In this document: positions 1,422 to 29,559 of the stretch, piece by piece
How the letters are laid out: the number at the start of each line of letters is the position of its first letter
How positions within the stretch are numbered: position 1 is the first letter of the stretch
Assembly: GCA_964466575.1 (NCBI GenBank)
Contig: CAYXNP010000002.1
Location: 30,913 to 94,912 of the forward strand
Length of the DNA: 64,000 nucleotides
From: Candidatus Woesearchaeota archaeon
Lineage (GTDB): Archaea > Nanobdellota > Nanobdellia > Pacearchaeales > GW2011-AR1
Direction: 5' to 3'
Position numbers and translations under genes: made by a program
Notes under the pieces: generated by a model
What the model saw: the letters and a program-made list of their open reading frames with translations, nothing else
What the model was told of the DNA's origin: nothing
Databases searched by the model: none

Positions 1422-2189
1422 ATGCCAGAAGAAAAAAGAATCATTGAAGCACAGCCCTCACTTGTAATAGCTTACTGTGAAAAAGGAAACAAGGTTCTTA
1501 CTTCTGTTTATGATGCTGGATATAGAAAAGGGAAAAGCCCATATGTTTTGACTCCAAATATTATTGGAGGAAATCCTGATTTAAAATATGTTAAAAATGG
1601 GCCATTAGAAGTTCTCGTTAGAGAGATTAATGAAGAATTTGATCCAGAATTTCAAATAGAACATCCAGATACAAATCAATTTAGACAGAGAGTTGCATGG
1701 GCAACACCAGAAGATATTGGTGTTGTTAGAAATGCTTTGTTTGAAGGTATAGAACCTTATCAGGATTTTTTTGTTGATGCTCAATCATTTAGAGAAGGAA
1801 CTGCAACTTACAAAGCGATTTATAGTTATTTCTTTTCAAACATATCTCCAGAAGTAATTGATGTTGTTGAGTCAAATCTTAGAAGACAAAAATCATTAAG
1901 TCCAGAAGGGCTTGTTGGAGTTTTTACATTAGAAGAATTGGAAAAAGACCCACGAGGAATGTTTGGCACGGCGCACATAACTGCTCCTGCATTAAATCAT
2001 TGTTTTGAAACAAATATTCCATACCCAGAAGAATACTTGAGGGTTTCTGTTGAAGGAATTCCAAGAGAATCTTATACAGGTTATCTTCTTGATTTTGAAT
2101 ATTCTAAAGTTAGAAAACCAAACCATAATGATCCTTCAAAAGAGGATCCAAGTTTTCATGAAGTTATTTTTGGTGTTGAAAAGGAATAA
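1422..2189 (+). CDS. Hypothetical protein, 255 aa, with no domain I can recognise.
   Basis: A clean ORF with an upstream TATA-like box. No diagnostic motif was identified. Confidence 0.4.
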   Translation: MPEEKRIIEAQPSLVIAYCEKGNKVLTSVYDAGYRKGKSPYVLTPNIIGGNPDLKYVKNGPLEVLVREINEEFDPEFQIEHPDTNQFRQRVAWATPEDIGVVRNALFEGIEPYQDFFVDAQSFREGTATYKAIYSYFFSNISPEVIDVVESNLRRQKSLSPEGLVGVFTLEELEKDPRGMFGTAHITAPALNHCFETNIPYPEEYLRVSVEGIPRESYTGYLLDFEYSKVRKPNHNDPSKEDPSFHEVIFGVEKE

Positions 2190-2281
2190 TTTTAATTTGA
2201 AAAATAGTTGCTTCGCAATAATTTAAGTTGATATAATTTGAGTTAACATTGTTTAAAAATGGTTTCGCAAAGGCGAGAAGT

Positions 2282-3595
2282 TTAAGGAAAATCTATACAC
2301 ATTGGATCTTCATCTAAAGAGCCCATTGCGATTTCTTCGATTTGTCGAGCGTATTCACCATAAGTGCATCTTCCGCATTCTGCATTAACACTTATTCCCT
2401 TAAGTAATTCTCTATGTTTATCTGTTCCCCAAAATTCAAGAATTTTTTCTGGATTTGGAAAATGAGAAGTTAGCTTAAATCGTTGTTCAATTCTGTGGTC
2501 AGCACAGACATAAACGTGGCCGTCAGCACATGCTTGCAACATTAATGGTGCGCATACACAATTTTTGAAAGTGTGTATTACTCTAAATTCAGGGTCGTAT
2601 TTGTGCATTATTGTAAATACTCTAAAGTTTTCACCGTCGCCGAGGTCATGGCACTTTTCAAATAGTTCGTGTATTTTTTCAATATTATAATTTAATTCCA
2701 TTGCGTTTTTGAAGTCTTTTCTTTCCAAATCTGCCGGTCTTGCATGAAAATCCCTAACACCAATATCTTTTGCAAGTTTGGCGGCTTCATAGACGTCATG
2801 CCAGTTGTCTGGACGAATTAGGAATTTAAATGCAATGTCAATTTTACTTCCTGTTTCTTGTTTTTTTCTCATTAATAGGCGGAGGTTTTCAATAACTCTT
2901 TTGTATGTGTTTCCATTTCCATTTTCGTCCCCCATTTCTCGTTTGAATAATTCTCTAATTTTGTTAAATATTATTTCATTATTAACGTCGACGCCATGCA
3001 CTTTTTCGTAACATTCTTTTACTTTGTCAAAAGTTATATCACTTTCACCAAATCCATGAACTTTGTCGAATACTTCTTTTGAACCAGAATCAACTGAAAC
3101 ACCCACCCAACGACAATGCATCATTTGATTTGCTATTTCTTCATTGATGATGCTCCCATTTGTTGCAAATGAACATTGCATTCCTTTGCTCTTAATATAT
3201 TCTGGAAGTTTCCAAACATTTCTATTCATTAAAGGTTCTCCGCCGCCACCTAAACAAACTCCTTTAACTCCCCACTTTGCCGCGAAATCGATTAAATTTT
3301 TCAGATGTTGTTCTGTCATTAATTTCATATCTTTTGGAACTTGCTCTGGATTTAATGTAAGGTATCGTTGAGCATTGCAATGCTCGCATTTATAATTACA
3401 AATATGTGCGGGGTCTAAAGAAAGTTCTATTGGCGGAGGTAACTGTACTCCTGGAACTCCTTTTAACCATTGGGCAATTGGTTTATAGTGCGTGTGATAA
3501 TAAATTAAACCCTTATAAGAATTAAATGAATTATACTTGCTTTTATCGTTCCACTCGCGCTCTTTTTTTCTTATGTCTATCATTTGATTTTTCAA
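2282..3595 (-). CDS. Radical SAM enzyme with a C-terminal SPASM-like Cys-rich domain.
   Basis: CNYKCEHCNAQ is a CxxxCxxC motif near residue 70 and GGGEPL is the glycine-rich SAM motif. The C-terminal cysteines (CVCAPLMLQACADGHVYVCADH...ECGRCTYGE) look like the auxiliary Fe-S cluster region of a SPASM or twitch domain. Confidence 0.75.
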   Translation of the reverse strand: MKNQMIDIRKKEREWNDKSKYNSFNSYKGLIYYHTHYKPIAQWLKGVPGVQLPPPIELSLDPAHICNYKCEHCNAQRYLTLNPEQVPKDMKLMTEQHLKNLIDFAAKWGVKGVCLGGGGEPLMNRNVWKLPEYIKSKGMQCSFATNGSIINEEIANQMMHCRWVGVSVDSGSKEVFDKVHGFGESDITFDKVKECYEKVHGVDVNNEIIFNKIRELFKREMGDENGNGNTYKRVIENLRLLMRKKQETGSKIDIAFKFLIRPDNWHDVYEAAKLAKDIGVRDFHARPADLERKDFKNAMELNYNIEKIHELFEKCHDLGDGENFRVFTIMHKYDPEFRVIHTFKNCVCAPLMLQACADGHVYVCADHRIEQRFKLTSHFPNPEKILEFWGTDKHRELLKGISVNAECGRCTYGEYARQIEEIAMGSLDEDPMCIDFP

Positions 3596-3694
3596 AAAAA
3601 TGAAATTTGGTTATAAACATTGTTGTTTTTAGATATATAGTTGTCCTACATTTAATTTGAAAAAATTTATAAGGAAAGCAATTTAATAAAAATT

Positions 3695-4198
3695 ATGATT
3701 ATAAACTTTGAAGATTTGTCAAAGATTAGAAATGAAAATATTAATAAAAAAATAGTTTTTTGTTCTGGAAGTTTTGATATTACTCATGTTGGGCATATTA
3801 TTTTTTTTGAAGAGTGTAATAAATATGGAAACATTCTTATTGTCGGTGTGGGAAGTGATAAAATGTTAAGATATCATAAGGGCGGCAATAGACCTATTTT
3901 AAATGAACATATACGATTGAAAACAATTGATAGCTTTAAGTGTGTTGATTATTCTTTTATTGATTCTGTATCTACGCCTGATGAACCTTTAATATTATTG
4001 AGATGTGTATTTGAGAGTTTAAAGCCAGATTTTTATTTAATTAACGATGATGCATTTGATATCCCCTATAGAGAAAGGGTTTGTGAGGAATTTAAAGTTA
4101 AATTGATTATATTAAAAAGGTGGTGCCCTCCTGAATTCGAAGATATTTCTACATCAAAAATAATAGAAAAAATAAAAAATTTAGATAAGAGTAATTAA
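3695..4198 (+). CDS. Cytidylyltransferase-like nucleotidyltransferase, resembling RfaE domain II or TagD with an HxGH motif.
   Basis: FCSGSFDITHVGH places the HxGH motif after a Gly-rich turn. The 167-aa size fits glycerol-3-P cytidylyltransferase or heptose-1-P adenylyltransferase domains. Confidence 0.65.
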   Translation: MIINFEDLSKIRNENINKKIVFCSGSFDITHVGHIIFFEECNKYGNILIVGVGSDKMLRYHKGGNRPILNEHIRLKTIDSFKCVDYSFIDSVSTPDEPLILLRCVFESLKPDFYLINDDAFDIPYRERVCEEFKVKLIILKRWCPPEFEDISTSKIIEKIKNLDKSN

Positions 4199-4238
4199 AC
4201 TAAATAATATTTAAAAAGAGATTTTTATTGGGAATTAA

Positions 4239-5705
4239 ATGGAGAAAATGTTGGATGTTCTTTTAGTTAATGCTGGAGGAATGAGAAAAAGAGTTTATCA
4301 GGAATTGAGCAGGGATTATTCTGCGATTGAGCCGCCATTTTGGGCTGCGTTGACTGCGGGTTTTGTTAGAAAAAAAGGATTTAGTGTTAAAATTCTCGAC
4401 GCTAATGCAGAAAATATTGATATTAAAGAAACAGTAGAGATAATAAAAGAACTTAATCCTAGATTTGTGAACATTATAGTTTATGGGCAACACCCTTCAG
4501 CATCAACCCAATTAATGGTTAGTGTTGGGAATTTATGCCGAGAAATAAAAAACAATGAACCCTTAAGAAAGATTTTATTGATAGGTTTGCATCCGTCTGC
4601 TTTGCCTGAAAAAACAATGAAGGAAGAAGTTTGTGATTATGTTTCGCAAGGAGAAGGATTTTATACAATTCTTGGATTATTGGAAAATAAAAACTTAAAT
4701 GAAATTCCTGGTTTGTGGTATAGGGAAAATAATTTAATAAAATCAAACGCGCCTGCTCCTTTAATTCAAGATTTAACAACTGAACTAAGTGATGTCGCTT
4801 GGGATTTACTGCCAATGGATAAATACAAAGCTCACAATTGGCATTGTTTGCATGATTTAGAATCGCGGGGAAGTTATGCTTCTTTATCAACAAGCTTGGG
4901 TTGCCCTTATAATTGTATTTTTTGCTGTATTAATTCGCCGTTTGGAAAATCTGGATATAGATGCTGGAGCCCTGAATGGGTATTGAAACAGCTTGATATT
5001 TTAGTTAAAGAATATAGTGTTAAAAATGTAAAGTTAATAGATGAACTGTTTGTTTTGAATCCGAAGCATTTTATGGAAATTTGCGACGGTGTTATTCAAA
5101 GAGGATATAAATTAAATTTTTGGGCTTATGCGAGGATTGATACTGTCAAGGAAGAACATTTAAGAAAAATGAAGCAAGCAGGAATTAATTGGCTTGCGTT
5201 AGGAATTGAATCTGCAAGTGAAGAAGTTAGGCAGGGTGCTGAGAAAGGCAGGTTTAATGAAACAGATATTGTAAATATTGTGAAAATGATTAAAGATGTT
5301 GATATTAATATTATTGGAAATTATATGTTCGGTTTGCCTGAAGATGATTTTCAATCAATGCAAGAAACATTAAAACTTTCTCTTGATTTAAATTGCGAGT
5401 TTGGGAATTTTTATTGTGCTTCTGCTTATCCTGGTTCAAAATTATATACTTGGGCAGTTGAAAATAATATTCAATTGCCAGAATCATGGGAAGGTTATGC
5501 TCAGCATAATTACAACTTTCTTTCTCTTCCAACAAAAACTTTGTCTCCCAAGGAGGTTCTTGAATATAGAGACTATGCTTTTGATGTTTATTTTAAGAAT
5601 CCAATATATTTGAAAATGATTGAAGAGCGATTTGGAATTGTTGCAAGAAAACATATTGAAGAAATGACAAAAATAAAATTGAAGAGAAAGTTGTTGGGCG
5701 ATTGA
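4239..5705 (+). CDS. Class B (B12-binding domain) radical SAM enzyme.
   Basis: The N-terminal segment VLLVNAGG...EPPFWAALTAGF...KILD resembles a cobalamin-binding fold. LGCPYNCIFCCIN is the CxxxCxxC motif, and the downstream region is a TIM-barrel-like domain of 488 aa. Confidence 0.85.
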   Translation: MEKMLDVLLVNAGGMRKRVYQELSRDYSAIEPPFWAALTAGFVRKKGFSVKILDANAENIDIKETVEIIKELNPRFVNIIVYGQHPSASTQLMVSVGNLCREIKNNEPLRKILLIGLHPSALPEKTMKEEVCDYVSQGEGFYTILGLLENKNLNEIPGLWYRENNLIKSNAPAPLIQDLTTELSDVAWDLLPMDKYKAHNWHCLHDLESRGSYASLSTSLGCPYNCIFCCINSPFGKSGYRCWSPEWVLKQLDILVKEYSVKNVKLIDELFVLNPKHFMEICDGVIQRGYKLNFWAYARIDTVKEEHLRKMKQAGINWLALGIESASEEVRQGAEKGRFNETDIVNIVKMIKDVDINIIGNYMFGLPEDDFQSMQETLKLSLDLNCEFGNFYCASAYPGSKLYTWAVENNIQLPESWEGYAQHNYNFLSLPTKTLSPKEVLEYRDYAFDVYFKNPIYLKMIEERFGIVARKHIEEMTKIKLKRKLLGD

Positions 5706-5759
5706 GATAAATATTATTACTACATAAATCTTTAAAAACAAATTGGAATTTTATGAAAT

Positions 5760-6473
5760 ATGGATTTTATTGAATATAATCAATTTGGAGAAGTTAAAAA
5801 AGAGATAAATGATCTGAAAATTAAAATGGATGAAATGAAATTAGTTCTTGAAAGAAATTTAAATAGTAATGGAAATGGTTTAACAAATCTGACAGCAGAG
5901 GATTTAATTGCTTTTGAAAATGACATTATTGAGATTTATGAAGCTGGAAAAATTAAGGCGCCTGTTCATTTTTGTAAAGGCAATGAAGAGCAACTTATTG
6001 AGATTTTTAAGAAAGTAGGAAAAGATGATTGGATTTTCTCGACGCATAGAAGTCATTATCATGCGTTATTAAAAGGTGTTGACCCATTGTGGTTGAAAAG
6101 AGAAATACTTGAAAAAAGAAGTATTCATATTAACAATAAAGAATATAAAACATTTACTTCTGCGATTGTCGGAGGAATTCTTCCTATTGCGCTTGGAGTT
6201 GCGCTTGCAATAAAACTAAAAAAAACAAACGAGAGAGTTTGGGCATTTGTCGGAGATATGTGTGCTGAAATGGGTGTTTTTCATGAATGTACAAAATATG
6301 CAAAAAGGCATAATTTGCCAATAACTTTTGTTGTAGAAGACAACAATTTAAGTGTTAACACTCCAACGCAAAAAGTTTGGGGTGAAAATGATTTTGGTAA
6401 TGCAAATATTATCAGATATAAATACAAAAGAATTTGTCCCCATCATGGTTCTGGAAAATGGGTGACTTTTTAA
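5760..6473 (+). CDS. Thiamine-diphosphate-dependent E1 alpha-like subunit (dehydrogenase E1 component family), minimal form.
   Basis: The TPP motif GDG-x26-NN reads VGDMCAEMGVFHECTKYAKRHNLPITFVVEDNN. HRSHYHAL resembles E1 alpha sequences. Confidence 0.7.
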   Translation: MDFIEYNQFGEVKKEINDLKIKMDEMKLVLERNLNSNGNGLTNLTAEDLIAFENDIIEIYEAGKIKAPVHFCKGNEEQLIEIFKKVGKDDWIFSTHRSHYHALLKGVDPLWLKREILEKRSIHINNKEYKTFTSAIVGGILPIALGVALAIKLKKTNERVWAFVGDMCAEMGVFHECTKYAKRHNLPITFVVEDNNLSVNTPTQKVWGENDFGNANIIRYKYKRICPHHGSGKWVTF

Positions 6474-6474
6474 A

Positions 6475-7035
6475 ATGAGTTACAAAGATGAAATAAAAAA
6501 AGCAATGACGATGTTAGGACAGCATCCGAAAACAATTTTTCTTGGACAAACAGTAGAATATTCTGGAAGTTGTATTTATGGGAGTTTAGAAGATGTTCCT
6601 AATGAAAAAAGAATTGAACTTCCAATTATCGAAGATACTCAAATGGGAATGTCTATTGGTTTAAGTTTGGAAGGATTTATTCCAATATCTATTTTTCCCA
6701 GGTTTGATTTTTTTATATGCGCTACTAATCAATTAGTAAATCACTTGGATAAAACTAGAGAGATGAGTAATGGGCGGTTTACTCCAAAAGTTATACTTAG
6801 AACAATGATAGGAGGTACAAATCCGCTTTATCCAGGAGTACAGCATTGTTCAGATTATACTGAAGCAATGAAACATTTTTTAAAAGATGTTGATGTTGTG
6901 AGTTTAACAAAAGAAGAAGATGTTATGTCTGTTTATAAAAGAGCTTTAGAAAGCGATAGGTCAACTTTAATTATTGAAGTAGCAGATTTATATAACGATG
7001 ATATTATTAGTGGTGAGAGAATAGGGAAGGATTAA
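6475..7035 (+). CDS. E1 beta-like / transketolase pyrimidine-binding-domain subunit, partner of 5760-6473.
   Basis: It starts 1 nt after the upstream stop. The size (186 aa) and sequence (IFLGQTVEYSGSCIYGS...PIIEDTQMGMSIGLS) fit a Transket_pyr-like domain. Confidence 0.6.
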   Translation: MSYKDEIKKAMTMLGQHPKTIFLGQTVEYSGSCIYGSLEDVPNEKRIELPIIEDTQMGMSIGLSLEGFIPISIFPRFDFFICATNQLVNHLDKTREMSNGRFTPKVILRTMIGGTNPLYPGVQHCSDYTEAMKHFLKDVDVVSLTKEEDVMSVYKRALESDRSTLIIEVADLYNDDIISGERIGKD

Positions 7036-7041
7036 ATTAAA

Positions 7042-7668
7042 ATGTTTAATGGAAAATTTGTTTGGTTGAAGGGTGCAATAAAAAAGTGGTTTTTGTTATT
7101 TGGTTATGAAATAGTTAAAGATAATAACGGCAATCATTTGAAGAAAATTTATTCTTCTAAATCTGCAATTCAGTTTATGAAAGAAAATTACAATAAAAAA
7201 GATTTAATTGTTGCTGAAATTGGGGTGTGGAAAGGTCACACTACAGAACATATAATAAAAACATTACCGATAAAAAGAATTTATGCAATTGATTCTTGGG
7301 CCCCTTGGAGTTCAAGTGAACATAACGAAGAAATAATTCAAACTGCAATGAAAGAAGCTAAAAAGAAGTTATCAAAATATGGCAATAAAGTCATCATCAT
7401 AAAAAAATATTCAAAAGACGCAGTTAAAGATATTAAAGAAAAATTAGATTTTGTTTATATTGATGGCGACCATGATTATGAATTTGTTAAAGACGACATT
7501 GAACAATATTATAAACTTTTAAAAAAAGGAGGGGTTTTGTCTGGTGATGATATTGAAAATAGAAGATTACCTAATGGAGTTTTCAAAGCATTATCTGAAT
7601 TTTCAGTTAAGAATAAATTAGATGTCAAAATTGAAGGGAATAATTGGTGGTTGATAAAACCGGATTAG
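7042..7668 (+). CDS. Class I SAM-dependent methyltransferase, in the O-methyltransferase or Methyltransf_24 family (TylF/MycF-like).
   Basis: The SAM-binding region LIVAEIGVWKGHTT and the DGDHDYEFVKDD motif are typical of this family. Confidence 0.65.
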   Translation: MFNGKFVWLKGAIKKWFLLFGYEIVKDNNGNHLKKIYSSKSAIQFMKENYNKKDLIVAEIGVWKGHTTEHIIKTLPIKRIYAIDSWAPWSSSEHNEEIIQTAMKEAKKKLSKYGNKVIIIKKYSKDAVKDIKEKLDFVYIDGDHDYEFVKDDIEQYYKLLKKGGVLSGDDIENRRLPNGVFKALSEFSVKNKLDVKIEGNNWWLIKPD

Positions 7669-9692
7669 AAATATTTCCATTTCTTAAATGAATCAATAAT
7701 CGGGCGAGTGAATAAAATATCTTTTAGGTCGTGTCCCATTGCTGAAGAGACATTGCAAATATGGGTGCAATCGCATTTATGATTTTTAATTTGATTAAAT
7801 AATTTTCTAGCTGGTTGTGATTTTAATAATTGCTCTGGAGAATTTTCTTTAAGGTTTCCAATTTTTGGCTGAAGTTCGCAGATTCTTAATGAACCATCGC
7901 TTTCTAAGATTAAATCATTTGTTCCTGCATTGCATTTGAAGGGCCATTTTTTACCTTCGAGAACTTCCATTTGAGAAATTATTATATGTCTATCTCGAAT
8001 ATTAGTGTAAATTCTTTTCAATAAACTTTTATGTTTTTTGGCATTATAATATTTTCTTGCATTATATCTTAAATTATTAATTTTATTAAAATCTTTTTTG
8101 TTTGGAAGAGTCAATAAACCTTTATGTTCTCCTCTAAGTAAATCAAAAAAGTGGTCTGATAAATCAAGTTTTTTTACTAATTCAATTAATGCTGGAAGGT
8201 CATTGATGTTTTCATTTGTGATAACTGTATTCACTGTAAGATACTTGAGGTTTGGATGTATTTTTCTTAATTCATTCATTTTTTTTATGAACTGGATTGA
8301 TTTCTTAAAATTTCCCTTTATTCCTCGAAGAAAATCGTGGCGCGCTTCTAATCCATCTAAAGAACAATCAATTGCAAAATCAACATGTGGATATTTCTTT
8401 AAGACTTTTTCCATGTCAGTTACAACTTTATTTTCCATTAAACAATTAGTTGGTATGCTGATTAAATTTGGATTAGTATATTTTATAATTAAATCTATAA
8501 TTTCTGGGAAGTCTTTTCTTATGAATGGTTCGCCCCCAGAAAGCAAAACCTCTGAAAGGTTGTAAAATTTTGATAATATTTCTTCGATTTCCTTGAGAGA
8601 TAAATCATTATTTTTGTTTAAATCTTTCCAATAAAAACAATGTTTGCATTTTGAATTGCATTTTGTTGTTATGAAAAAAGTGACGCCGCTTAACTTCTTT
8701 TTGTTTACATTTTTAATAAAACCCAAGTATTTCTTTTCTATATTTCTTGTTCTTACTAAAAATGGAAATTCTATTGTGTCAAACATTTCAGAATCAGAAA
8801 TTTTTCTTTTGTCTTGAATGTATTTGCGTTTTTTAAGAGTTTGGTTTAATTTTTTTAAATTGTATAAATATGCTCTAAAGACTTCAATACCATGTTTTTT
8901 GAGTAATAATGTCTGAAAAAAGTCAGTTAATAAAAAAGGAGTATTTAGAATAATTGTTTTTGATTCGAAATTTTTTAATAGTGTTGTTAGTTTATTCCGT
9001 TTGTCTCTGTATGTTTCTTTTTTCATTGGCGCGTTTTTCATTGTATGGTGGCTTAAATGAAATGAAACTAAGTCAGAATTATAGACAACTTTCCAACCAG
9101 CAATGTTTGCTCTTAAACCTAAATCAGAGTCTTCAACACCATAATAATAATCAGAATCAAAACCGCCAATTTCTTGTACCATTTTTTTCCTAATTATTAA
9201 TGAGGCGCTTTTCAAATAACCAACTCTTCTAAAAGAATTGTATTGTCCGATATCTTTTTCTCCAAAACCAATGTCTGTTCCTCCCCCATTTCTTGCAAGA
9301 ATTCCTCCAGCAGCGTCTATTAAACCATCTGCTCTAATTATTTTTCCATTACACAAACCGACATCTAAATGAGAATCCATATATTTGACTGCATTTTTAA
9401 TCCACTCTTTTGTTAATTTTGCATCACTGTCCATGACTACAAAATACTCTGAATTTGACATTGACATGCCAATATTTCTTTTTTTGGAAGGACCTTCATT
9501 TGGTACATCTACAAAATTTATAGAAGAATAATTTTTTTTAATAAATTCTTTTGTATTGTCTGTTGAATCGTTGTCTAATAAATAAATTTTAATTTTCTTA
9601 TAAGTTTGATTATTTATTGAGTCTATACAATCTCCTAAAATGTTTTTATTATTATGTGAAACAATTATAACATCAACATTTGATTCTTTCAT
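7665..9692 (-). CDS. Fusion protein with an N-terminal GT2 glycosyltransferase and a C-terminal radical SAM/SPASM domain.
   Basis: The N-terminus reads VDVIIVSHNN...LLDNDSTDNT...VVMDSDAKL...YGVEDSDLGLR, a GT-A fold with DxD-like elements. Residue ~335 onward reads FFITTKCNSKCKHCFYW, a CxxxCxxC motif, followed by LSGGEPF, and the protein ends with Cys-rich CNAG...CELQ...CDCTHIC. The continuous ORF is 675 aa. Confidence 0.8.
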   Translation of the reverse strand: MKESNVDVIIVSHNNKNILGDCIDSINNQTYKKIKIYLLDNDSTDNTKEFIKKNYSSINFVDVPNEGPSKKRNIGMSMSNSEYFVVMDSDAKLTKEWIKNAVKYMDSHLDVGLCNGKIIRADGLIDAAGGILARNGGGTDIGFGEKDIGQYNSFRRVGYLKSASLIIRKKMVQEIGGFDSDYYYGVEDSDLGLRANIAGWKVVYNSDLVSFHLSHHTMKNAPMKKETYRDKRNKLTTLLKNFESKTIILNTPFLLTDFFQTLLLKKHGIEVFRAYLYNLKKLNQTLKKRKYIQDKRKISDSEMFDTIEFPFLVRTRNIEKKYLGFIKNVNKKKLSGVTFFITTKCNSKCKHCFYWKDLNKNNDLSLKEIEEILSKFYNLSEVLLSGGEPFIRKDFPEIIDLIIKYTNPNLISIPTNCLMENKVVTDMEKVLKKYPHVDFAIDCSLDGLEARHDFLRGIKGNFKKSIQFIKKMNELRKIHPNLKYLTVNTVITNENINDLPALIELVKKLDLSDHFFDLLRGEHKGLLTLPNKKDFNKINNLRYNARKYYNAKKHKSLLKRIYTNIRDRHIIISQMEVLEGKKWPFKCNAGTNDLILESDGSLRICELQPKIGNLKENSPEQLLKSQPARKLFNQIKNHKCDCTHICNVSSAMGHDLKDILFTRPIIDSFKKWKYF

Positions 9693-9810
9693 TTTTGTAT
9701 AGTTATGGAATCCTTTTTAAGCTTTATTTAGAAATGTTAACTAAATTGTATATTTTGAATATCATATTTTAGATAGATAAACCTTAAAAAACGCCTGACT
9801 TTCTGTCGTT

Positions 9811-11196
9811 ATGGCAAAAGTTCTACTTGTTCAGCCTCATAATAATTTAAAAGAGAAGACAAATATTGTTGCTCCTCCGTCGAGTTTGATTATAGTAGCT
9901 ACATCAATACAGCACAAACATCCTGTTAAAATTTATGATAGAAATGTAGAACTGGGAGATGAGCGATTTTTTAAGATGCTTAAAGAATATAATCCTGATA
10001 TAATTGGATTTACAACAATGACTTCTACAATGTTATATGATATTGTTCATTTGGGTCCAAAAATTAAAGAGATTATGCCTAAGAAAATTATTATAATTGG
10101 AGGGGTGCATCCCAGTATTGAACCTGATTCTGTTTTGAATGAATCATATGTTGACTATATAATGAGAGGAGAAGGGGAAGAGGCTTTTTTGGAATTCTGT
10201 GATACTTTTGATAAAAATCCCAAGAAGTTGGGAACATTAAAAAATATTAATAAAAACCCTTTGAGACCATTTATGGATTTAAATATGGTTAAGTTTCCAA
10301 ATTATGATTTAGTTGATGTCAAGAAATATAGGCAGTTTTTTATTTTTACAAGCAGGGGATGCCCTGGAAGATGCACTTTTTGCTATAATATTGGTATGTG
10401 GGGAAAAGATGGAAATCCCTGTGTTAGGGTTTATGATACTGAGAAAACAAAAGCTTTGTTTAAAGAAGCAATTGAAAAATATAGTATAGTTGATTTTACA
10501 ATCAGCGACGAGAATTTTATGACATTTAAAAAAAGGAGTATTGAAGTTGGAGAGTTTCTTGCAAGAAATTACAAAGGAAAAATTAATTTCTTTATTTTTG
10601 GAAGGGCCGATTTTATGAAGAAAAATGAAGATGCGATTAAAGTCTTAAAAAAAGCCGGGCTTCATACAATTCAGATTGGTTCTGAAACAGGAAGTCAAAG
10701 AGTTCTAGATTTTCTTAATAAAAATATAAGTGTTGAAGTTCAAGCAGAGGCAATTGATATTTGCAGAAGAAACGGAGTTTTTAGTGATGCAAGTTTTATG
10801 ATTGGAATTCCGACAGAAACAATTGAAGAATTAAGAATGACTGAGAGATTTATTAGAACAACAAAACCAGACATCATGGATATTAAAATATTTAATCCAA
10901 TTCCTGGAACAAAAGTTTTTGATGATTTGGTTGAAGATGGAACAATAAAAAAGCCCAAAAATTTATTGGAATGGGCTGATTGGACTGGAAATTGGAGAGA
11001 TATGAAACATAATTTTAGTAAAATTCCTGATGCAGTATTATGGAAAATGGCAGAAAAATTTTGGGGGTATAATTACTATCGTTCTAGAATTAAAAAAGCG
11101 ATTTTTTGGATTCGAAAAGGCAGAATCAAATATGTCACAACAAAGATTAGACAGGGTTTAATTAAAGGTTATAATAAAGAGGGTCTAGAATTATAA
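9811..11196 (+). CDS. Class B (B12-binding domain) radical SAM enzyme.
   Basis: The N-domain reads VLLVQPHNN...PPSSLIIVAT...IIGGVHPS. SRGCPGRCTFCYN is the CxxxCxxC motif. Confidence 0.85.
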   Translation: MAKVLLVQPHNNLKEKTNIVAPPSSLIIVATSIQHKHPVKIYDRNVELGDERFFKMLKEYNPDIIGFTTMTSTMLYDIVHLGPKIKEIMPKKIIIIGGVHPSIEPDSVLNESYVDYIMRGEGEEAFLEFCDTFDKNPKKLGTLKNINKNPLRPFMDLNMVKFPNYDLVDVKKYRQFFIFTSRGCPGRCTFCYNIGMWGKDGNPCVRVYDTEKTKALFKEAIEKYSIVDFTISDENFMTFKKRSIEVGEFLARNYKGKINFFIFGRADFMKKNEDAIKVLKKAGLHTIQIGSETGSQRVLDFLNKNISVEVQAEAIDICRRNGVFSDASFMIGIPTETIEELRMTERFIRTTKPDIMDIKIFNPIPGTKVFDDLVEDGTIKKPKNLLEWADWTGNWRDMKHNFSKIPDAVLWKMAEKFWGYNYYRSRIKKAIFWIRKGRIKYVTTKIRQGLIKGYNKEGLEL

Positions 11197-12273
11197 AACT
11201 TTATCAATTTCTTTTTTAATATCTTCGACGCTAATATCTTTCATTTCCTTGTAAATCACTATTGATTTTTTCCCTAAAGGGCCAATATGTTTTAAATTAT
11301 ATTCTTTTGGAATTAATGCAATTAGGTTTATATTGGCAATCCATGCTAAATGCATTGGTGCTCCGTCAGGAGCAATCACAAGAGAGCTATTCTTATATAA
11401 TAAATAATTAAATCTAAGATTCTTTTTTATCAAAGGAATTGTTGAGAAATTTTTCTTTGATAAATATCTTATTTTCTTAGAATCTGAACCGACAAGAATT
11501 ATTTTGTAAAGAGGATATTTTTGTTTAATATATTTAATAACTGCATCAAATTTATTTAAAGAAAGTTGTTTTTCTTTAAAACTTGCATCTGGCACTATAC
11601 AAACATATTTTTTTAATTTAAATTCATTAAGGAAATTTGTTAGCTCTAATTTATCATTTTCATCTACAAAGATTTCTTGATGTTCATTAATGGATTTAAT
11701 AGAGAGATTCTTTTTTACTAATTCTAATTCAGAAATGCTTGCGTGAATTTCTTTTTTGTATCTTACTGGATTTGTTAAAAGGGGTTTTCCACCATTAAAA
11801 CTATAGTATCCTGAACGCATTTTTATCTTAGAAAAATACATAAAAATCATATTAATCAACATTGTTCCTGCTTCAATTCCAAGGTCATATTCGTCCCCTT
11901 TAATTTTCTTGAAAGTTTTAATATAATTACGCAAAGTTGAAATTGGTTTTTTTCTCCATGAAAAATCCAATTTAATAATCTCGTCTATGTTTGGATTTTT
12001 TTCAATTATTTGTGAATTTAGTTTTGATGCAATAACTGTTAATTTTGAGTTAGGAAAGTTTTTTTTGATTTCTCTGAAAACATTCGTTGTTAAAACCATG
12101 TCCCCAATTTTACAATTACGGATTATTAGTATTTTTTTTGGGTTAGAAATTTTGATTGGTTTAGACTTGAAGAAAAGCCCTATTAATTTATCTAAGAAAT
12201 ATAATTTTATGGCGTTTTGTTTTGAATTTTTTCTTACACAATATTCTTGATAGAATTTATTCATTAAAATCAT
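11191..12273 (-). CDS. GT9-family glycosyltransferase, ADP-heptose:LPS heptosyltransferase-like.
   Basis: KKILIIRNCKIGDMVLTTNVFREIKKNFPNSKLTVIASK matches the GT9 N-terminal signature and IAPDGAPMHLAWIAN matches the C-terminal one. Confidence 0.75.
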   Translation of the reverse strand: MILMNKFYQEYCVRKNSKQNAIKLYFLDKLIGLFFKSKPIKISNPKKILIIRNCKIGDMVLTTNVFREIKKNFPNSKLTVIASKLNSQIIEKNPNIDEIIKLDFSWRKKPISTLRNYIKTFKKIKGDEYDLGIEAGTMLINMIFMYFSKIKMRSGYYSFNGGKPLLTNPVRYKKEIHASISELELVKKNLSIKSINEHQEIFVDENDKLELTNFLNEFKLKKYVCIVPDASFKEKQLSLNKFDAVIKYIKQKYPLYKIILVGSDSKKIRYLSKKNFSTIPLIKKNLRFNYLLYKNSSLVIAPDGAPMHLAWIANINLIALIPKEYNLKHIGPLGKKSIVIYKEMKDISVEDIKKEIDKVL

Positions 12274-12310
12274 GGATTGGGTGCATATTTAATATTTATG
12301 TATGTGTAGA

Positions 12311-13021
12311 TTATATTTTGTGGTTAATCTTCTGAAAATAATAATCTACATTAAACGTTCTTTTTATAGTGTAATACAATCTTTTGTGTTTTCTTAGACG
12401 TGGTTTTAGTATGTTGATTATTTTCCTTATTCTTGGATATGTGCTCTGAATAGTAATTCCTTTTTTTCTATCTTTGTAACTTTCATTTAATCTCTTGTCA
12501 ACATGATAAGGGGTGAATTCTTTGACGCCGAGAAATTTGAATAATTTGTTTAATTCACCTTGTTTATTTTGATTGTCCATATTAAAAATAAAAACATTTT
12601 TGCCAAACTCTTTTTTCCATGGTTCAATGAGTTCTTTTTGATTAAATTTTGGTTTCTTTGTCGGAAGAAGATCATGATATTTTGAAACATTATAATATGA
12701 TTTTGCCCTATCTTCTTCATTTCTTTCGTAGATTATTATTTTAGTGTTGGGAAATAATTTTTTTAATAATTTAGCAGAACGTTTTTTATCGATTATTAGT
12801 GTGCTTATTTCTCCAACTACTTTACTGAAGTCGCAATTTTTAAATTTTTTATAATAGTTTTTTAAGCCCATAATTTCATACTCTTCAGGGAAATAATTAA
12901 TTTCAGTAAGAAGATTAAATTTAGGTATGCTTATTTGAGGATGTTCATATAAGCAATTAACCAGCCAATTTGAACCTGTTCTTCCAAATCCGACACCAAT
13001 GAAATCTATTCTTAATTTCAT
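12311..13021 (-). CDS. Sulfotransferase-family protein.
   Basis: The 5'-PSB-like motif is GFGRTGSNWL and the 3'-PB-like motif is YERNEEDRAKSYY (RxxxxRxxS). Confidence 0.6.
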   Translation of the reverse strand: MKLRIDFIGVGFGRTGSNWLVNCLYEHPQISIPKFNLLTEINYFPEEYEIMGLKNYYKKFKNCDFSKVVGEISTLIIDKKRSAKLLKKLFPNTKIIIYERNEEDRAKSYYNVSKYHDLLPTKKPKFNQKELIEPWKKEFGKNVFIFNMDNQNKQGELNKLFKFLGVKEFTPYHVDKRLNESYKDRKKGITIQSTYPRIRKIINILKPRLRKHKRLYYTIKRTFNVDYYFQKINHKI

Positions 13022-13105: not shown

Positions 13106-14170
13106 ATGAATAAAAGGGTAAAGATTATTTGTACAATCGGACCGTCTTCTTCTAATTCAGATATATTGAATAAATTCAAAGAAAGGGGAGTTGATTATTT
13201 TAGAATAAATCTTTCTCATACTAATACGGAAGATATTGAAACTAAGATATTGGAATTAAAAAAATATGGGGTTCCAATAATCTTAGATACTGAAGGTCCC
13301 CAAGTTAGGACAGGAAATGTTGACGAAATACTCTTTAGAGAAGGAGATAGTGTGAGAGTTTACTCGAAAGAGGTTATGTGTGACTCAGAAAATTTATTTT
13401 TAACACCCCAAAGGATTGTAAATAGTTTTGAAGTTGGGGATGAAATTTCTCTTGCATTTGGTTCTGCAACTTTTGTGGTTGAAGATACTTCAAATCTTGA
13501 GAGTGACGGATTTATAATTTGTAAAGTATTGTTGGGTGGAGAGATTGGAAGAAAAAAAGCAGTGCATATCGACGGCCCGAATTTTCTTTTGCATGATTTT
13601 AGTGAGAAAGATATGTATGCAATTGAACTTGCTAAAAGACAAAGTATAAAATACTTTACTCTTTCATTTATGGAAAGTGCTGATTCTGTTCAAAAGATAA
13701 GGGACTTTTATCCAGATGCAATTCTTTATTCCAAAATAGAATCTAGGAAGGGATTGGTTAATTTTGATAGTATCCTTGAAACTTCAGATGGGATTTTAAT
13801 TGATAGGGGTGATTTGAGTAGCCATATCCCGATTCATAAAATTCCAGTGATACAAAAGCATTTGATTGAAAAATGTAGAAATAAGGGCAAGGACTTATTT
13901 GTAGCCACTGATACTCTTCAGAATATGTTTTCAAATCACAGACCGAATGCTGCAGATGCAAATGACATTGTAAATACTCTTTTAGACGGTGCAACAGGAA
14001 TAGCACTAACTAAAGAGACTGCAGTTGGTAAATATCCAATACAGACTGTAGAAATGATGAATAAGATCATTGATTATATAGAATATATCTCGGGTTTTGA
14101 CAGCCTTCACCACCCAGACATCTTGAAAAGTATTCTTGAAGAAAGTAAACCTAAGTCTTTAAAGAATTAA
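13106..14170 (+). CDS. Pyruvate-kinase-like barrel-domain protein that lacks the C-terminal alpha/beta domain. A divergent PK paralog.
   Basis: KIICTIGPSS, LDTEGPQVRTG and SKIESRKG (K-x-E) are conserved. LIDRGDLSSHIP replaces the canonical MVARGDLGVEIP. At 354 aa it is about 120 aa shorter than a genuine PK. Confidence 0.65.
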   Translation: MNKRVKIICTIGPSSSNSDILNKFKERGVDYFRINLSHTNTEDIETKILELKKYGVPIILDTEGPQVRTGNVDEILFREGDSVRVYSKEVMCDSENLFLTPQRIVNSFEVGDEISLAFGSATFVVEDTSNLESDGFIICKVLLGGEIGRKKAVHIDGPNFLLHDFSEKDMYAIELAKRQSIKYFTLSFMESADSVQKIRDFYPDAILYSKIESRKGLVNFDSILETSDGILIDRGDLSSHIPIHKIPVIQKHLIEKCRNKGKDLFVATDTLQNMFSNHRPNAADANDIVNTLLDGATGIALTKETAVGKYPIQTVEMMNKIIDYIEYISGFDSLHHPDILKSILEESKPKSLKN

Positions 14171-15461: not shown

Positions 15462-16481
15462 TTAGTTGTATTTGAAATAATTTAAAAAATTCAATTGTTT
15501 TTTTAATATTAAATTAAAGGGATATAATCTGCTTGGTTGAAATCCTTCTCTTTCTCTGCAATTTTTACAGATGTGGTTTTTTGGAAATGAATTTTCAATA
15601 TTTTGTTTTCTGAATTCTTGCATTTTCTTGCTGTTCCATATTTCTTTTAATGTTTGCTTGTTTAAATCTCCAAGAACTAATTTTGCATCGTAATCAAAAC
15701 AACAGGGCACAACTTTTCCGTCCCACAAAACAGTTAATTTTCCCCAAGGCCAAAAACAAGGGTAATAATATTTTCTTTTGAATTTATGCGAGTATTCGTC
15801 GGCTAATTTAGTTATGTTATCCATACTACCATCCCACGTGATAAAATCTTTGACTTCAACATGCTCTATTCCTTTTTTGTTAGACCATTTTTTCTTAAAT
15901 GAGTTAATTTCATTTTTAGTTTCTTTCATCCTTATTATTGCGATTGTTGTTTCTGGTAATTTTGATTTTCTTTTATTTTTTTCTTTTAAAAAATTATCAA
16001 TATTCTTAAGAGCGATATCATAATCCGCTAACCCTTTTCTTATCTTTTCATAAGTTTCTTTTGTAGCACCATCCAATGAAATATGCAAGAAGTCTAATTT
16101 TGAATCTAAAATTTCGTTGATTTTGTCTTTTGTTAAACTTGAGGGATTTGTCGAAAAAGATGCTTGAATTTTATATTTGTGGCATATTTTTATCATTTCC
16201 CCTATTTTTGGATGTAATAACGGATCTCCAAAATGATGCAAAACAATTCTAGAGTTATATTTCATTTGTTTTATTATTTTTTCAAATAATTTTATGTCCA
16301 TATATCCGATTTCTCGTTTCATGTAATTTCTTGGACACATGATACATTTCATTCCGCAAGCATTGGTTGGTTCAATATTGCTTATTGAAGGAAATGCTTT
16401 GACTATGAGTTTCTTATGAGAATAATCGTATCCTTTTTTCCATAGGTTGATTAATTTATTAAAAGTATTAACCATTTTCAT
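15462..16481 (-). CDS. Radical SAM/SPASM-domain enzyme.
   Basis: NACGMKCIMCPRN is a CxxxCxxC motif near the N-terminus. The C-terminal cysteines read VPCCFDYD...HICKNCRERE. Confidence 0.75.
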   Translation of the reverse strand: MKMVNTFNKLINLWKKGYDYSHKKLIVKAFPSISNIEPTNACGMKCIMCPRNYMKREIGYMDIKLFEKIIKQMKYNSRIVLHHFGDPLLHPKIGEMIKICHKYKIQASFSTNPSSLTKDKINEILDSKLDFLHISLDGATKETYEKIRKGLADYDIALKNIDNFLKEKNKRKSKLPETTIAIIRMKETKNEINSFKKKWSNKKGIEHVEVKDFITWDGSMDNITKLADEYSHKFKRKYYYPCFWPWGKLTVLWDGKVVPCCFDYDAKLVLGDLNKQTLKEIWNSKKMQEFRKQNIENSFPKNHICKNCREREGFQPSRLYPFNLILKKQLNFLNYFKYN

Positions 16482-16540: not shown

Positions 16541-17320
16541 ATGGTTGTTTCGTTAACTATTGATACTGAAGAAGACCTTCATTCAAAAACGTATGTAAGT
16601 CTGAATTATGGCATTCCAAAGATATTAAAAATTTGTGATAGGTTTGAGATTAAACTGACGTTTTTTGTTCCAGCTATGCTTCTAGAAAAGTTTCCTGTTC
16701 TTTTCAAAGATTTAAGAAATAAAGGGCACGAGATTGCGTTGCATGGTTATGAACATGAGAGATTTGATGAACTTTCTTTTAATGAAAAAGAAAAACGAAT
16801 TATAAAATCAATTTTAGTATATAGAGAGATATTTAATGAAAATCCAAAGGGGTTTAGGGCGCCGCAACACTCTATTGATAATGAAACTTTAGGTTTGTTG
16901 AGCAAATATGGTTTTTCTTATGACTCGTCATATACACCGTTTAATTTATTGCAGTTACTTTTTTTCCCAAAGAAAATCAAGTTATTTATTGAAGGTTTCT
17001 TTAAACCTAGAAAGATTTTCTTTATTAAAAAAAACTTATATGAAATTCCGGTGTCTGGATTTCTTATTGCTTTTGTATCACTTCCTTTAAGAATTTTTCC
17101 TAAGCCGATTTTAAGATTATATTTATCAATTCTGAAATTAACAAATAAAGATTTAGTTTTTTATGCACATTCATGGGATTTTATTAAATTGCCTAATAGC
17201 AGAATAGATAAAATATTTAGCCATAAAAAATTGATGAAAAATCTTGAACTGATGATAAAATATTTGGTTAAAAAAAATAAATTTTTAACAATGGAGCAAA
17301 TTGCAAATGAAAATTCTTGA
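16541..17320 (+). CDS. Polysaccharide deacetylase of the CE4/NodB-like family.
   Basis: SLTIDTEED, ALHGYEHERF (HxxH) and FRAPQHS (similar to RPPYG) are the NodB motifs. Confidence 0.6.
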   Translation: MVVSLTIDTEEDLHSKTYVSLNYGIPKILKICDRFEIKLTFFVPAMLLEKFPVLFKDLRNKGHEIALHGYEHERFDELSFNEKEKRIIKSILVYREIFNENPKGFRAPQHSIDNETLGLLSKYGFSYDSSYTPFNLLQLLFFPKKIKLFIEGFFKPRKIFFIKKNLYEIPVSGFLIAFVSLPLRIFPKPILRLYLSILKLTNKDLVFYAHSWDFIKLPNSRIDKIFSHKKLMKNLELMIKYLVKKNKFLTMEQIANENS

Positions 17321-18496: not shown

Positions 18497-20041
18497 ATGA
18501 GAATAATTCTTATATCGGCTGCGACGTTTCCGTCTGACCAAGGAATCAGAACTATTTCGGCAATTTTGAAAAAAGCTGGACACGACGTGAAAATCGTTTT
18601 TATGGCTTATTCAGAAGATTATTCCAAATTTTATCATAATAGGGAATTAAATCAATTAGTAAATATCTGCAAAAATGCAGATTTGATTGGAGTTAATTGT
18701 TATGTTTCGACTATGCCCCGAGCGATTCAAATTACAGGATTTTTGAAAAAGAAATTAAAAAAAGAAATTCCGATTGTTTGGGGTGGAATTCATCCGACGC
18801 TTTTTCCTCAAGATTGCATTAAATATGCAGACATTGTTTGCGTTGGCGACGGCGAAGATGCTGTTTTAGATTTGGCGAAGGCCATTGAAAATAAAAAACC
18901 AATTGATAAAATTCAAAACTTGTGGGTTAAAGATAAAAATGGTGAGATAGTAAAAAATCCTGTCCGTCCATTTATTGATAATCTTGATACTCTGCCTTTT
19001 GTGGATTACGATATAGAAGACCATTACATTTTGGAAAATCACAATTTGAGAAAATTTAAAGAAGAAGATTTGAATGGCCAAATATTCTTTTTGACAGGAA
19101 GGGGCTGTCCTTATGGCTGTACTTATTGCAGCAATAATCTTTTGAATGAGTTGTATAAAGGCAAATGCAAATCAATTGTAAGGTGGCACAGTGTCGACTA
19201 TATTATTGAGCATGTTTTATATTTAAAAAAACGATTTAAAACTTTGAGTTACTTTGATATTAGGGATGATACTTTTTCTTTGAGACCATTGAGCCAGATT
19301 CAGGAATTTTGTGAAAAGTATAAGGAAAAAGTTAATATGCGGTTCAAATGTCTTGGTGACCCGAAGACAATCTCTGAAGATAAAATTAAAGTTCTTGTCG
19401 ACGCTGGATGCACTGATATCATTATTGGAATCCAAGGCAATGAAAAAACTAACAGAGATATTTACAAAAGAGGGCAGACGAATGAACAAGTTTTGAAAGC
19501 CGGAAAAATTTTGAGTAAATACAAAAATAAATTGGCAGTGATGTATGATGTGATAACGTGCAATCCTTTTGAAGATGCGAAGGATGTAATTGACCTTATT
19601 CGACTTTTACAAATACTTCCTAAACCATATTATGTTTCTGTGAATAATCTGGTTTTTTTTCCTGGAACCGGCATTTATGAACGCGCCAAGATGAATCCTA
19701 AACTAAAAAAGATTGTTGAAGAAAGTTCTAAGTTAAATTATTGGGATAGGAATAAGCATATTTTATTGAAAAGGAAAGATATGTATCTTGTTTTGATTTT
19801 GAATTTAATGAGAGGTTCTGTGACTGAGAACAGATTTGGTTTAATGCCGAATAAATTAATTAATTATTTGTTAAAACCGTCGAGAATAAAATACAATTTA
19901 AATAATCCTGCTTTGACTTACATTGGATTGTCTTTTGTTAGTGTGATGGATTTAACGCGAGAAAGAATTGCGAAGCCGTTGTATCGTTCAACGCCGGTAA
20001 ATTTTAAAGTTTGGTATGATAAGATTCGTTATAGAGTTTAA
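18497..20041 (+). CDS. Class B (B12-binding domain) radical SAM enzyme.
   Basis: The N-domain reads IILISAATFPSDQG...VWGGIHPTLFP. GRGCPYGCTYCSNN is the CxxxCxxC motif. Confidence 0.85.
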   Translation: MRIILISAATFPSDQGIRTISAILKKAGHDVKIVFMAYSEDYSKFYHNRELNQLVNICKNADLIGVNCYVSTMPRAIQITGFLKKKLKKEIPIVWGGIHPTLFPQDCIKYADIVCVGDGEDAVLDLAKAIENKKPIDKIQNLWVKDKNGEIVKNPVRPFIDNLDTLPFVDYDIEDHYILENHNLRKFKEEDLNGQIFFLTGRGCPYGCTYCSNNLLNELYKGKCKSIVRWHSVDYIIEHVLYLKKRFKTLSYFDIRDDTFSLRPLSQIQEFCEKYKEKVNMRFKCLGDPKTISEDKIKVLVDAGCTDIIIGIQGNEKTNRDIYKRGQTNEQVLKAGKILSKYKNKLAVMYDVITCNPFEDAKDVIDLIRLLQILPKPYYVSVNNLVFFPGTGIYERAKMNPKLKKIVEESSKLNYWDRNKHILLKRKDMYLVLILNLMRGSVTENRFGLMPNKLINYLLKPSRIKYNLNNPALTYIGLSFVSVMDLTRERIAKPLYRSTPVNFKVWYDKIRYRV

Positions 20042-29264: not shown

Positions 29265-29355
29265 AAGATTTTAGAAGGGGTTGTAGGAATTGTTCTTTTA
29301 GAATCGAAAAATTTATAAAGATGTAAGTACATGTAAGAACATAAAGATAAGGAAA

Positions 29356-29556: not shown

Positions 29557-29559
29557 AAA

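Follow-up and report, generated by a model that had tools for sequence, protein, structure and literature searches.

To our knowledge, almost all known radical S-adenosylmethionine (SAM) enzymes with sugar substrates belong to antibiotic pathways (BtrN, DesII, NeoN, AviX12 and BlsE) or to two lipid head-group cases, and a role of such enzymes in the assembly of cell-surface glycans is essentially unexplored. In the HpnI/HpnK/HpnJ (hopanoid cyclitol ether) and Cds (calditol synthase) systems, the sugar that a glycosyltransferase has installed is then rearranged by a radical SAM enzyme, with a deacetylase acting between the two steps in the Hpn case (PMC13459092). BtrN, the 2-deoxy-scyllo-inosamine dehydrogenase, carries one auxiliary [4Fe-4S] cluster held by four Cys ligands and oxidises a secondary alcohol of a carbohydrate-like ring (PMC9012708). 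Function is not readable from similarity in the radical SAM superfamily (PMC6231123). Here we describe a gene in a stretch of 64,000 nucleotides of contig CAYXNP010000002.1 (the window), from a Pacearchaeota/Nanoarchaeota-like DPANN archaeon, which joins a family 2 glycosyltransferase (GT2) to a radical SAM enzyme in one polypeptide. We favour, with moderate confidence, the interpretation that the fusion protein is a bifunctional enzyme of surface-glycan assembly, which first attaches a sugar and afterwards modifies it in a radical reaction. Its role is probably in the assembly of N-glycans, and the enzyme is probably membrane-associated.

An earlier note on this DNA had described the fusion as one continuous open reading frame (ORF) and had raised the prospect of a frameshift joining two genes. 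The frame is continuous, with an ATG start, 675 codons and a stop; it lies on the minus strand, which had gone unstated, and the plus-strand reading of the same interval is riddled with stops. The continuity holds well beyond this contig. The identical 675-residue protein (P0001) is called on 18 contigs that come from several independent samples and assemblers, and it is intact even in assemblies where neighbouring genes are split in two. Nineteen full-length orthologues, with identities of 44-78%, align unbroken across the domain junction, and several of them are labelled Candidatus Pacearchaeota or Nanoarchaeota. An alignment of 28 fusions, reaching down to 24% identity, shows the DxD, ED, CX3CX2C and GGEPF motifs and the auxiliary-cluster cysteines to be invariant, and for this reason both halves are judged to be under selection. 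By the same comparisons, the fusion is taken to be genuine and conserved.

The domains of the protein were called by a Pfam profile scan. The Glycos_transf_2 profile (PF00535) matches residues 8-110 with 86.7 bits against a cut-off of 23.3 (E 2.3e-24), and Glyco_tranf_2_3 (PF13641) spans residues 6-214. Radical_SAM (PF04055) matches residues 341-506 (E 7.1e-17), and the SPASM profile (PF13186) matches residues 587-642 marginally, with 22.1 bits against a cut-off of 21.5. By their E-values, the domain matches are far beyond chance. An AlphaFold2 model built on the alignment has a mean predicted local distance difference test score of 91.1 and a predicted template modelling score of 0.89. It consists of a GT-A domain, a six-helix segment, a partial triosephosphate isomerase (TIM) barrel and a domain made of a β-hairpin and a helix, with the boundaries given in the table. 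The high template modelling score for a chain of 675 residues with two enzymes suggests a fixed mutual arrangement of the predicted halves.

The GT2 assignment of the N-terminal part, which had been proposed from the letters alone, is borne out by the two Pfam matches, by the D88-S-D90 motif and by the GT-A fold of the model. Profile, DxD motif with an acidic residue, and predicted fold together place this half in the GT2 family. The E187-D188 pair is presumably catalytic, by analogy with inverting GT2 enzymes in general. H212 is also invariant in the 28 fusions. The GT half of the model superposes best on GlfT2, GalNAc-T1, K4CP and WrtF. No solved chain spanning both halves was found when the protein was compared, in sequence and in structure, with solved structures.

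The radical SAM motifs had likewise been recognized correctly: FFITTKCNSKCKHC supplies Cys 345, 349 and 352, and GGEPF is formed by residues 386-390. The family signature F-Y-W follows directly after CX3CX2C, and HCFYW is invariant in the 28 fusions, as are R392, N416, D446, H452, R456, N495 and R520 of this half. With the CX3CX2C motif, the GGE motif for SAM and the partial TIM barrel, this half is a member of the radical SAM superfamily. Its best superpositions are with SkfB, the sugar-nucleoside decarboxylase BlsE, SuiB, viperin and anSME.

The C-terminal domain was less well described at first. The earlier note had seen a Cys-rich auxiliary cluster region of the SPASM type; the Cys-rich region stands, with C587, C605, C640, C642 and C646, and the SPASM type gives way to a twitch pattern. 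All five cysteines are invariant within the 28 fusions. Counted over 192 aligned members of the radical SAM clade, C587 and C605 are conserved in 100%, C640 in 97%, C642 in 99% and C646 in 69%. The SPASM domain has a seven-cysteine motif, CX9-15GX4C...CX2CX5CX3C...C, which ligates Aux I and Aux II, the two auxiliary clusters. Neither the CX2CX5CX3C element nor the seven-Cys motif is present in the C-terminal domain in the 28-fusion and 192-member alignments. A canonical SPASM domain was rejected on these grounds: just four C-terminal cysteines are conserved to at least 97%, and the Pfam score is barely above its threshold. A twitch domain carries one auxiliary cluster and a SPASM domain two (PMC9012708; the two-cluster definition also in PMC6231123). 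HMMER aligns the region to the twitch domain of SkfB, whose auxiliary cluster is ligated by CX33CXC (PMC6231123), and the C605-X34-CXC spacing matches that pattern. The model places a hairpin at residues 593-603 and a helix at residues 626-636, according to the secondary structure assignment (DSSP). Judged by its cysteine pattern, C587-X17-C605-X34-C640-X-C642, the domain is a twitch domain, with one predicted cluster.

The coupling of the two activities can be followed through the relatives of the fusion. The genes of two standalone radical SAM homologues (P0028 and P0037) overlap, at their start, the 3' end of the GT2 gene upstream; that GT2 has about 300 residues and 26-27% identity to the N-domain of the fusion. 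Among 80 loci from GTDB (L011-L090), 13 have a clear-scoring GT2 gene immediately upstream on the same strand and 3 more a weak-scoring one; in 7, a clear-scoring GT2 gene lies directly downstream of the radical SAM gene, and 2 are true fusions. When the immediate neighbours were counted by Pfam family (L005-L090), GT2 came first on either side, at 18 of 80 upstream and 11 of 83 downstream positions, ahead of class I methyltransferases and B12-binding radical SAM enzymes. A rough neighbour-joining tree of the radical domain mixes fused with unfused proteins, with at least 23 changes of state, a count in which some of the 'standalone' entries may be fragments. The hidden Markov model of the linker matches the close clade and, outside it, just a single, more distant fusion (P0024, locus L007). 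The linkers differ between the clades: they are helical in the DPANN clade and contain two or three hydrophobic helices elsewhere, which points to repeated independent fusion. These overlapping pairs, the GT2 neighbour counts, the interleaved tree and the clade-limited linker model indicate that a pair of genes which work together has been fused and split repeatedly. Functional coupling of the GT2 and radical SAM activities thus has strong comparative support. Channelling, and action of both domains on one and the same sugar, as the earlier note had suggested, are at present hypotheses.

The search by domain architecture that the earlier note had proposed was carried out, with a profile search that covered 1.84 billion cluster representatives. 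About 45-50 of the best 150 profile hits are single-stretch, full-length fusions. When 265 retrieved proteins were sorted into classes with domain models, 83 were simple GT2/radical SAM fusions of less than 800 residues, 89 were standalone radical SAM proteins and 70 were GT2-only or multi-GT2 proteins. A further 13 were larger proteins with both domains (GT2 followed by two radical SAM modules, or giant multi-GT2 chains), and 10 combined a radical SAM domain with another partner (ferredoxin-NADP reductase-like, UDP-galactopyranose-mutase-like or B12-binding). P0031, P0190 and P0261 (1123-1179 residues) consist of a GT2 domain and two tandem copies of the radical SAM-twitch module, and P0168, P0170 and P0262 (1866-2163 residues) are giant multi-GT2 proteins with one or two such modules at the end. 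In remoter members of the clade (P0110-P0120; P0114 at L092 7001-8950), a ferredoxin-NADP-reductase-like module, a possible built-in reductant, is fused C-terminally. The context of P0114, the sole one of this type examined, has Por-secretion-tail proteins and peptidases and no glycan cluster. Relatives occur in at least 564 genomes of GTDB species representatives. Among the matches listed are Planctomycetota, Omnitrophota, Acidobacteriota, Chloroflexota, Myxococcota, Nitrospirota and Elusimicrobiota, together with Woese-/Nanoarchaeota, Bathyarchaeota and Methanosarcinales. All 80 GTDB loci that were kept come from metagenome bins or single-cell assemblies. The earlier statement that no characterised example is known holds for solved structures, NCBIfam and the literature; the architecture is not rare, as 83 fusions were retrieved and an automatic JGI label exists, 'GT2 family glycosyltransferase/MoaA/NifB/PqqE/SkfB family radical SAM enzyme'. 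The architecture is uncharacterised rather than unseen, and is common in metagenomes.

By combining the predicted structure with the genomic context, a sequence of events can be proposed for the fusion enzyme. The GT2 domain, with a metal bound at the DxD motif and a nucleoside diphosphate (NDP)-sugar, would add one sugar to a growing glycan. The acceptor glycan would most likely be linked to a lipid (dolichyl-phosphate) at the cytoplasmic face of the membrane, and the helical linker would keep the enzyme at the membrane and set the relative position of the catalytic domains. The radical SAM domain would then cleave SAM reductively at the [4Fe-4S] cluster of the CX3CX2C motif, and the resulting 5'-deoxyadenosyl radical would take a hydrogen atom from the newly installed sugar or its neighbour. 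In the favoured outcome, the Cys-ligated twitch cluster would accept an electron, giving a keto-sugar in a two-electron oxidation of the BtrN/anSME type. Fully Cys-ligated twitch and Aux I clusters go with two-electron oxidations, and such a cluster has been proposed to accept the electron in BtrN; for Aux I of SuiB this was observed directly (PMC9012708). As a second choice, hydrogen would be returned to the opposite face to give an epimer, in the manner of NeoN and AviX12, with C646 as a candidate hydrogen-atom donor. Domain identities, intact catalytic motifs, the one-cluster twitch pattern, the recurrent GT2/radical SAM linkage and the glycan-cluster context are what the analysis shows; which sugar is given to which acceptor, in what order the domains act and by what chemistry is what we infer for this enzyme.

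The surroundings of the gene fit such a role. The archaeal-type oligosaccharyltransferase, the AglH-like GT and the flippase of the window are consistent with an archaeal N-glycosylation system; they belong to a minus-strand set at 39083-49311 that encodes a family 4 glycosyltransferase (GT4), GT2, PMT_2, GT2, the flippase, the AglH-like GT and STT3/AglB. Wherever a fusion or one of its closest unfused relatives has a long, well-resolved context, this is a glycan cluster; such clusters carry Wzx-type flippases, GT4 and family 9 glycosyltransferases, sugar epimerases/dehydratases, methyltransferases, phosphonate modules and sulfotransferases. Several observations weigh against this interpretation. 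The fusion gene is monocistronic in the window, the AglB gene lies 37 kb away from it, and about two thirds of the unfused relatives have no immediately adjacent GT2 gene. No biochemically characterised member was found among solved structures, curated families and the literature. Among the structural neighbours that act on sugars, the closest (BlsE, viperin and DesII) take nucleosides or nucleotides as substrates, which would equally suit a modification of the donor before transfer.

This last point leads to an alternative in which the order is reversed. The nucleotide-sugar donor, such as a UDP-hexose or UDP-hexofuranose, would first be altered by the radical domain (deoxygenated, oxidised, decarboxylated or rearranged, for instance), and the fused GT2 would then transfer the unstable or rare product directly, so that the fusion would channel a donor and not edit an acceptor. 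The arginines R392, R456 and R520, conserved throughout the family, could bind a diphosphate, and it is the galactofuranosyltransferase GlfT2 that the GT half resembles most. In one relative, P0081, the fusion partner is a UDP-galactopyranose-mutase-like flavoenzyme, which works at the level of NDP-sugars, and the P0081 gene lies inside a polysaccharide cluster; a GLF gene lies near the orthologue in L006. The window, however, has no GLF gene among the ORFs scanned, the hydrophobic or transmembrane linkers of the distant fusions point to chemistry at the membrane, and the neighbouring LPG_synthase_TM and flippase genes do likewise. We regard the reversed order as less likely than the favoured one, though it is the main rival and no observation decisively separates the two.

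The linker itself deserves attention here. Its Kyte-Doolittle hydrophobicity peaks at 1.33 in the window's protein, versus 1.8-2.6 with two or three peaks in the distant fusions, whose linkers contain two or three strongly hydrophobic, transmembrane-like helices. Such linkers, together with LPG_synthase_TM neighbours, would also suit a second alternative, in which the GT2 glycosylates a membrane lipid and the radical domain contracts the ring of the sugar to a cyclitol or carbocycle, as proposed for Cds and HpnI/HpnK/HpnJ. As far as is known, DPANN archaea mostly lack lipid synthesis, which weighs against it. The logic of glycosyl transfer, optional deacetylation and a radical SAM step on the same sugar is known (PMC13459092), and in the DPANN subclade P0013/P0017/P0018 a conserved carbohydrate esterase family 4 (CE4) polysaccharide deacetylase lies directly downstream of the fusion. 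The contexts, on the other hand, are multi-GT glycan clusters with Wzx flippases and not lipid operons, and a deacetylase co-occurs at only 4 of 86 loci in the wider family. A lipid head-group function appears quite improbable. A general triad of GT, deacetylase and radical SAM enzyme, as in Hpn, was rejected because of the same rarity and because the direct downstream position is confined to one DPANN subclade. The deacetylase that the window itself encodes (16541-17320) is no closer to the CE4 copies in that subclade than a distant paralogue.

A third alternative is that the protein matures a peptide that is made on the ribosome and modified after translation (RiPP), the GT2 glycosylating the peptide in the manner of SunS/ThuS and the twitch domain cross-linking or epimerising it in the manner of SkfB. 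SkfB is the best sequence match and joint-best structural match of the radical half, and among NCBIfam models the GT half scores highest with the mycofactocin glycosyltransferase MftF; this hit, with 73.6 bits, is far below its 280-bit cut-off. The segment before the radical core argues against a peptide substrate: in the model, residues 223-335 contain helices only, with zero β-strands by DSSP, so that no fold of the RiPP recognition element (RRE) type, with its three-stranded sheet, is present. With a 4-nt overlap with the downstream neighbour and an upstream spacer of 118 nt, there is no space for a precursor gene; neither a protease nor a transporter was seen in the context, and the well-resolved contexts of the fusions and their closest relatives are all glycan clusters. 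The RiPP maturase was rejected for want of an RRE and of space for a precursor gene and in view of the glycan context, and seems very improbable. That adjacent GT2 and radical SAM genes were joined by a sequencing or assembly frameshift has a negligible chance and was also rejected: the two domains do occur as separate, adjacent and even overlapping genes in many genomes, so that a single-base error could mimic a fusion, but the identical protein on 18 contigs from independent samples and assemblers, the 19 orthologues of the same length, the conserved and confidently folded linker and the 83 simple fusions speak against it.

Table. Features of the fusion gene, of the window and of related loci. 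Positions are those of the window unless a locus is named.
Feature	Residues	Position	Strand	Basis or remark
Complete gene, 675-residue GT2/radical SAM-twitch fusion		7665..9692	minus	ORF list and translation; stop codon 7665-7667
GT2 (GT-A fold) glycosyltransferase domain	1-222	9027..9692	minus	
DxD motif D88-S-D90, metal/NDP-sugar binding		9423..9431	minus	D88 and D90 invariant in 28 fusions
E187-D188 motif, presumed catalytic base region		9129..9134	minus	invariant in 28 fusions
All-helical linker, six helices	223-330	8703..9026	minus	DSSP of the AlphaFold2 model
Moderately hydrophobic helix	246-264	8901-8957	minus	Kyte-Doolittle peak 1.33
Radical SAM core, partial TIM barrel	331-580	7953..8702	minus	
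CX3CX2C motif C345-N-S-K-C349-K-H-C352, binds the SAM-cleaving [4Fe-4S] cluster		8637..8660	minus	cysteines 100% conserved in 192 members
GGEPF motif, SAM binding	386-390	8523..8537	minus	G386, G387, E388 and P389 100% conserved in 192 members
Twitch-type auxiliary Fe-S domain, β-hairpin then helix then CxC	581-675	7668..7952	minus	DSSP and SkfB alignment
C587-X17-C605 flanking the β-hairpin, with G600-X4-C605		7878..7934	minus	both Cys 100%, G600 94% (192 members)
C640-D-C642-T-H-I-C646, CxC ligand pair and fifth cysteine		7755..7775	minus	
Divergent AT-rich intergenic region, 118 nt		9693..9810	.	sequence and ORF coordinates; presumed promoters
Archaeal-type oligosaccharyltransferase STT3/AglB, 970 residues		46399-49311	minus	
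AglH-like GT, family 4 enzyme		45376-46389	minus	
Wzx-like flippase		44145-45374	minus	
Radical SAM gene		2282-3595	minus	
Radical SAM gene		4239-5705	plus	
Radical SAM gene (the fusion)		7665-9692	minus	
Radical SAM gene		9811-11196	plus	
Radical SAM gene		15462-16481	minus	
Radical SAM gene		18497-20041	plus	
Radical SAM gene		25021-26481	plus	
CE4 deacetylase copies, 65-67% mutual identity		L006 10007-10777; L093 8048-8824; L094 8023-8805		

In the window, the intergenic region separates the fusion gene from the divergent gene of a B12-binding radical SAM enzyme (9811-11196), and at its other end the fusion gene converges on a Methyltransf_24 gene with a 4-nt overlap. A conserved methyltransferase partner was considered and rejected, since this gene, conserved in the nearest clade (the window and L005), is convergent and belongs to another operon. 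Class I methyltransferases are the second commonest neighbour family-wide, yet make up about 5-9% of the immediate neighbours. The Methyltransf_24 gene belongs to a plus-strand operon (3695-7668) that encodes a cytidylyltransferase, a B12-binding radical SAM enzyme, a split enzyme dependent on thiamine pyrophosphate (TPP; 5760-6473 and 6475-7035) and the methyltransferase. A pyruvate-kinase-barrel protein is encoded at 13106-14170. The orthologous loci L006 (12386-17945) and L093 (11092-14016) contain a phosphoenolpyruvate mutase-cytidylyltransferase fusion, a TPP decarboxylase and an iron-dependent alcohol dehydrogenase, which form a phosphonate-decoration module, and the window may encode a variant of it.

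Seven radical SAM genes lie within about 24 kb of one glycan cluster (2282-26481): four with B12-binding domains, one with a strong SPASM domain, a plain one and the fusion itself. Further on, at 34502-35842 on the plus strand, there is an eighth. This density suggests sugar tailoring that is largely radical-based. Within the same cluster, a sulfotransferase (12311-13021, minus strand) and a 590-residue FGE-sulfatase-domain protein (26545-28317, plus strand) hint at sulfated glycans or at a modification of the formylglycine type. A plus-strand block at 28617-35842 comprises genes for a PD-(D/E)XK nuclease, for a protein of the NTP_transf_2 type and for an SNF2-family helicase, a pair of ORFs that match no Pfam profile, and the gene of a 446-residue radical SAM protein; here the run of glycan genes may be broken by a mobile or defence island. 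A comparison with Rfam detected no RNA family in the window.

Two related loci show further arrangements. In L008, the distant fusion P0041 is directly followed by a fusion in reverse order (10055-12292; a B12-binding radical SAM domain and then GT2, 745 residues), by another radical SAM gene and by an LPG_synthase_TM-methyltransferase gene; the upstream part of the locus (1880-6554) holds four tandem NTP_transf_2/HEPN pairs. In L005, from a Pacearchaeota bin, the genes beside the orthologue P0005 (945-6954) encode a PAP2 phosphatase, a UbiA prenyltransferase, two epimerases of the short-chain dehydrogenase/reductase type and an FAD amino-oxidase-like protein, a set which, by analogy, resembles the decaprenyl-phospho-arabinofuranose pathway of mycobacteria.

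It is possible, and we put it forward tentatively, that the fusions represent a widespread undescribed class of radical glycan-editing glycosyltransferases, which install a common sugar and at once convert it in place, through the 5'-deoxyadenosyl radical, to a rare one (keto, epimeric, deoxy or rearranged). If so, genome-reduced anaerobic DPANN symbionts and uncultured lineages such as Omnitrophota would diversify their surface or N-linked glycans without dedicated nucleotide-sugar pathways, and the other radical SAM genes in the same clusters would be part of a largely radical-based tailoring of glycans. The family would also help to explain the density of radical SAM genes in DPANN glycan clusters. 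Editing after transfer would be a new route to rare sugars, useful for glycoengineering. The radical domain is tied, covalently or genomically, to a glycosyltransferase in hundreds of bacterial and archaeal species, which gives a handle on the identity of its substrate: this should therefore be the donor or the product of the glycosyltransferase, and the chemistry should therefore be directly testable in vitro. The fusion offers a directly testable lead into radical chemistry on cell-surface glycans.

The fusion stands apart from the curated families. Its best NCBIfam scores, 55-74 bits, reach none of the cut-offs of 231-725; the equivalogs that fail include MftF, NirJ/AhbC/AhbD, MoaA, SbtM, ScmE/F and TIGR04053, and ten standalone homologues are likewise below every NCBIfam cut-off. 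No paper describing a GT2/radical SAM fusion was found in literature searches. MftF, the top NCBIfam hit of the GT half, acts with MftC in the mycofactocin pathway, which thus unites a GT2 and a SPASM-family radical SAM enzyme; these are encoded by separate genes and serve a peptide-derived cofactor. Judged by its score, the fusion protein is not a member of the MftF family. GlfT2 (the M. tuberculosis galactofuranosyltransferase, PDB 4FIX), GalNAc-T1, K4CP, WrtF and TarP have 14-19% identity and carry no radical SAM domain, and at such identity donor specificity cannot be transferred from enzymes of the GlfT2 type.

SkfB, the sactisynthase of B. subtilis (PDB 6EFN), is a twitch radical SAM enzyme with about 18% identity. 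It has an N-terminal RRE domain that binds its peptide substrate, whereas the fusion has a GT2 domain and helices at its N-terminus and a context of glycan synthesis. BlsE, the cytosylglucuronate decarboxylase (PDB 7VOB), is a standalone enzyme of a nucleoside-antibiotic pathway with 17% identity, which does not imply a shared reaction. The Hpn and Cds enzymes are separate proteins that act on lipids, and their likeness to the fusion is one of pathway logic only; the DPANN subclade with a deacetylase directly downstream of the fusion recalls the deacetylase of the Hpn case. AviX12, from the avilamycin pathway, is reportedly a radical SAM sugar epimerase (work cited in PMC8326336). In NeoN, from the neomycin pathway, a cysteine is the hydrogen-atom donor (PMC5682303). 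Both edit the stereochemistry of a sugar that is already in an oligosaccharide; they are standalone enzymes of antibiotic pathways, likened to the fusion by description only. BtrN is the archetypal twitch enzyme acting on a sugar-like substrate. It shares the twitch pattern with the fusion, and is the mechanistic model for the favoured chemistry.

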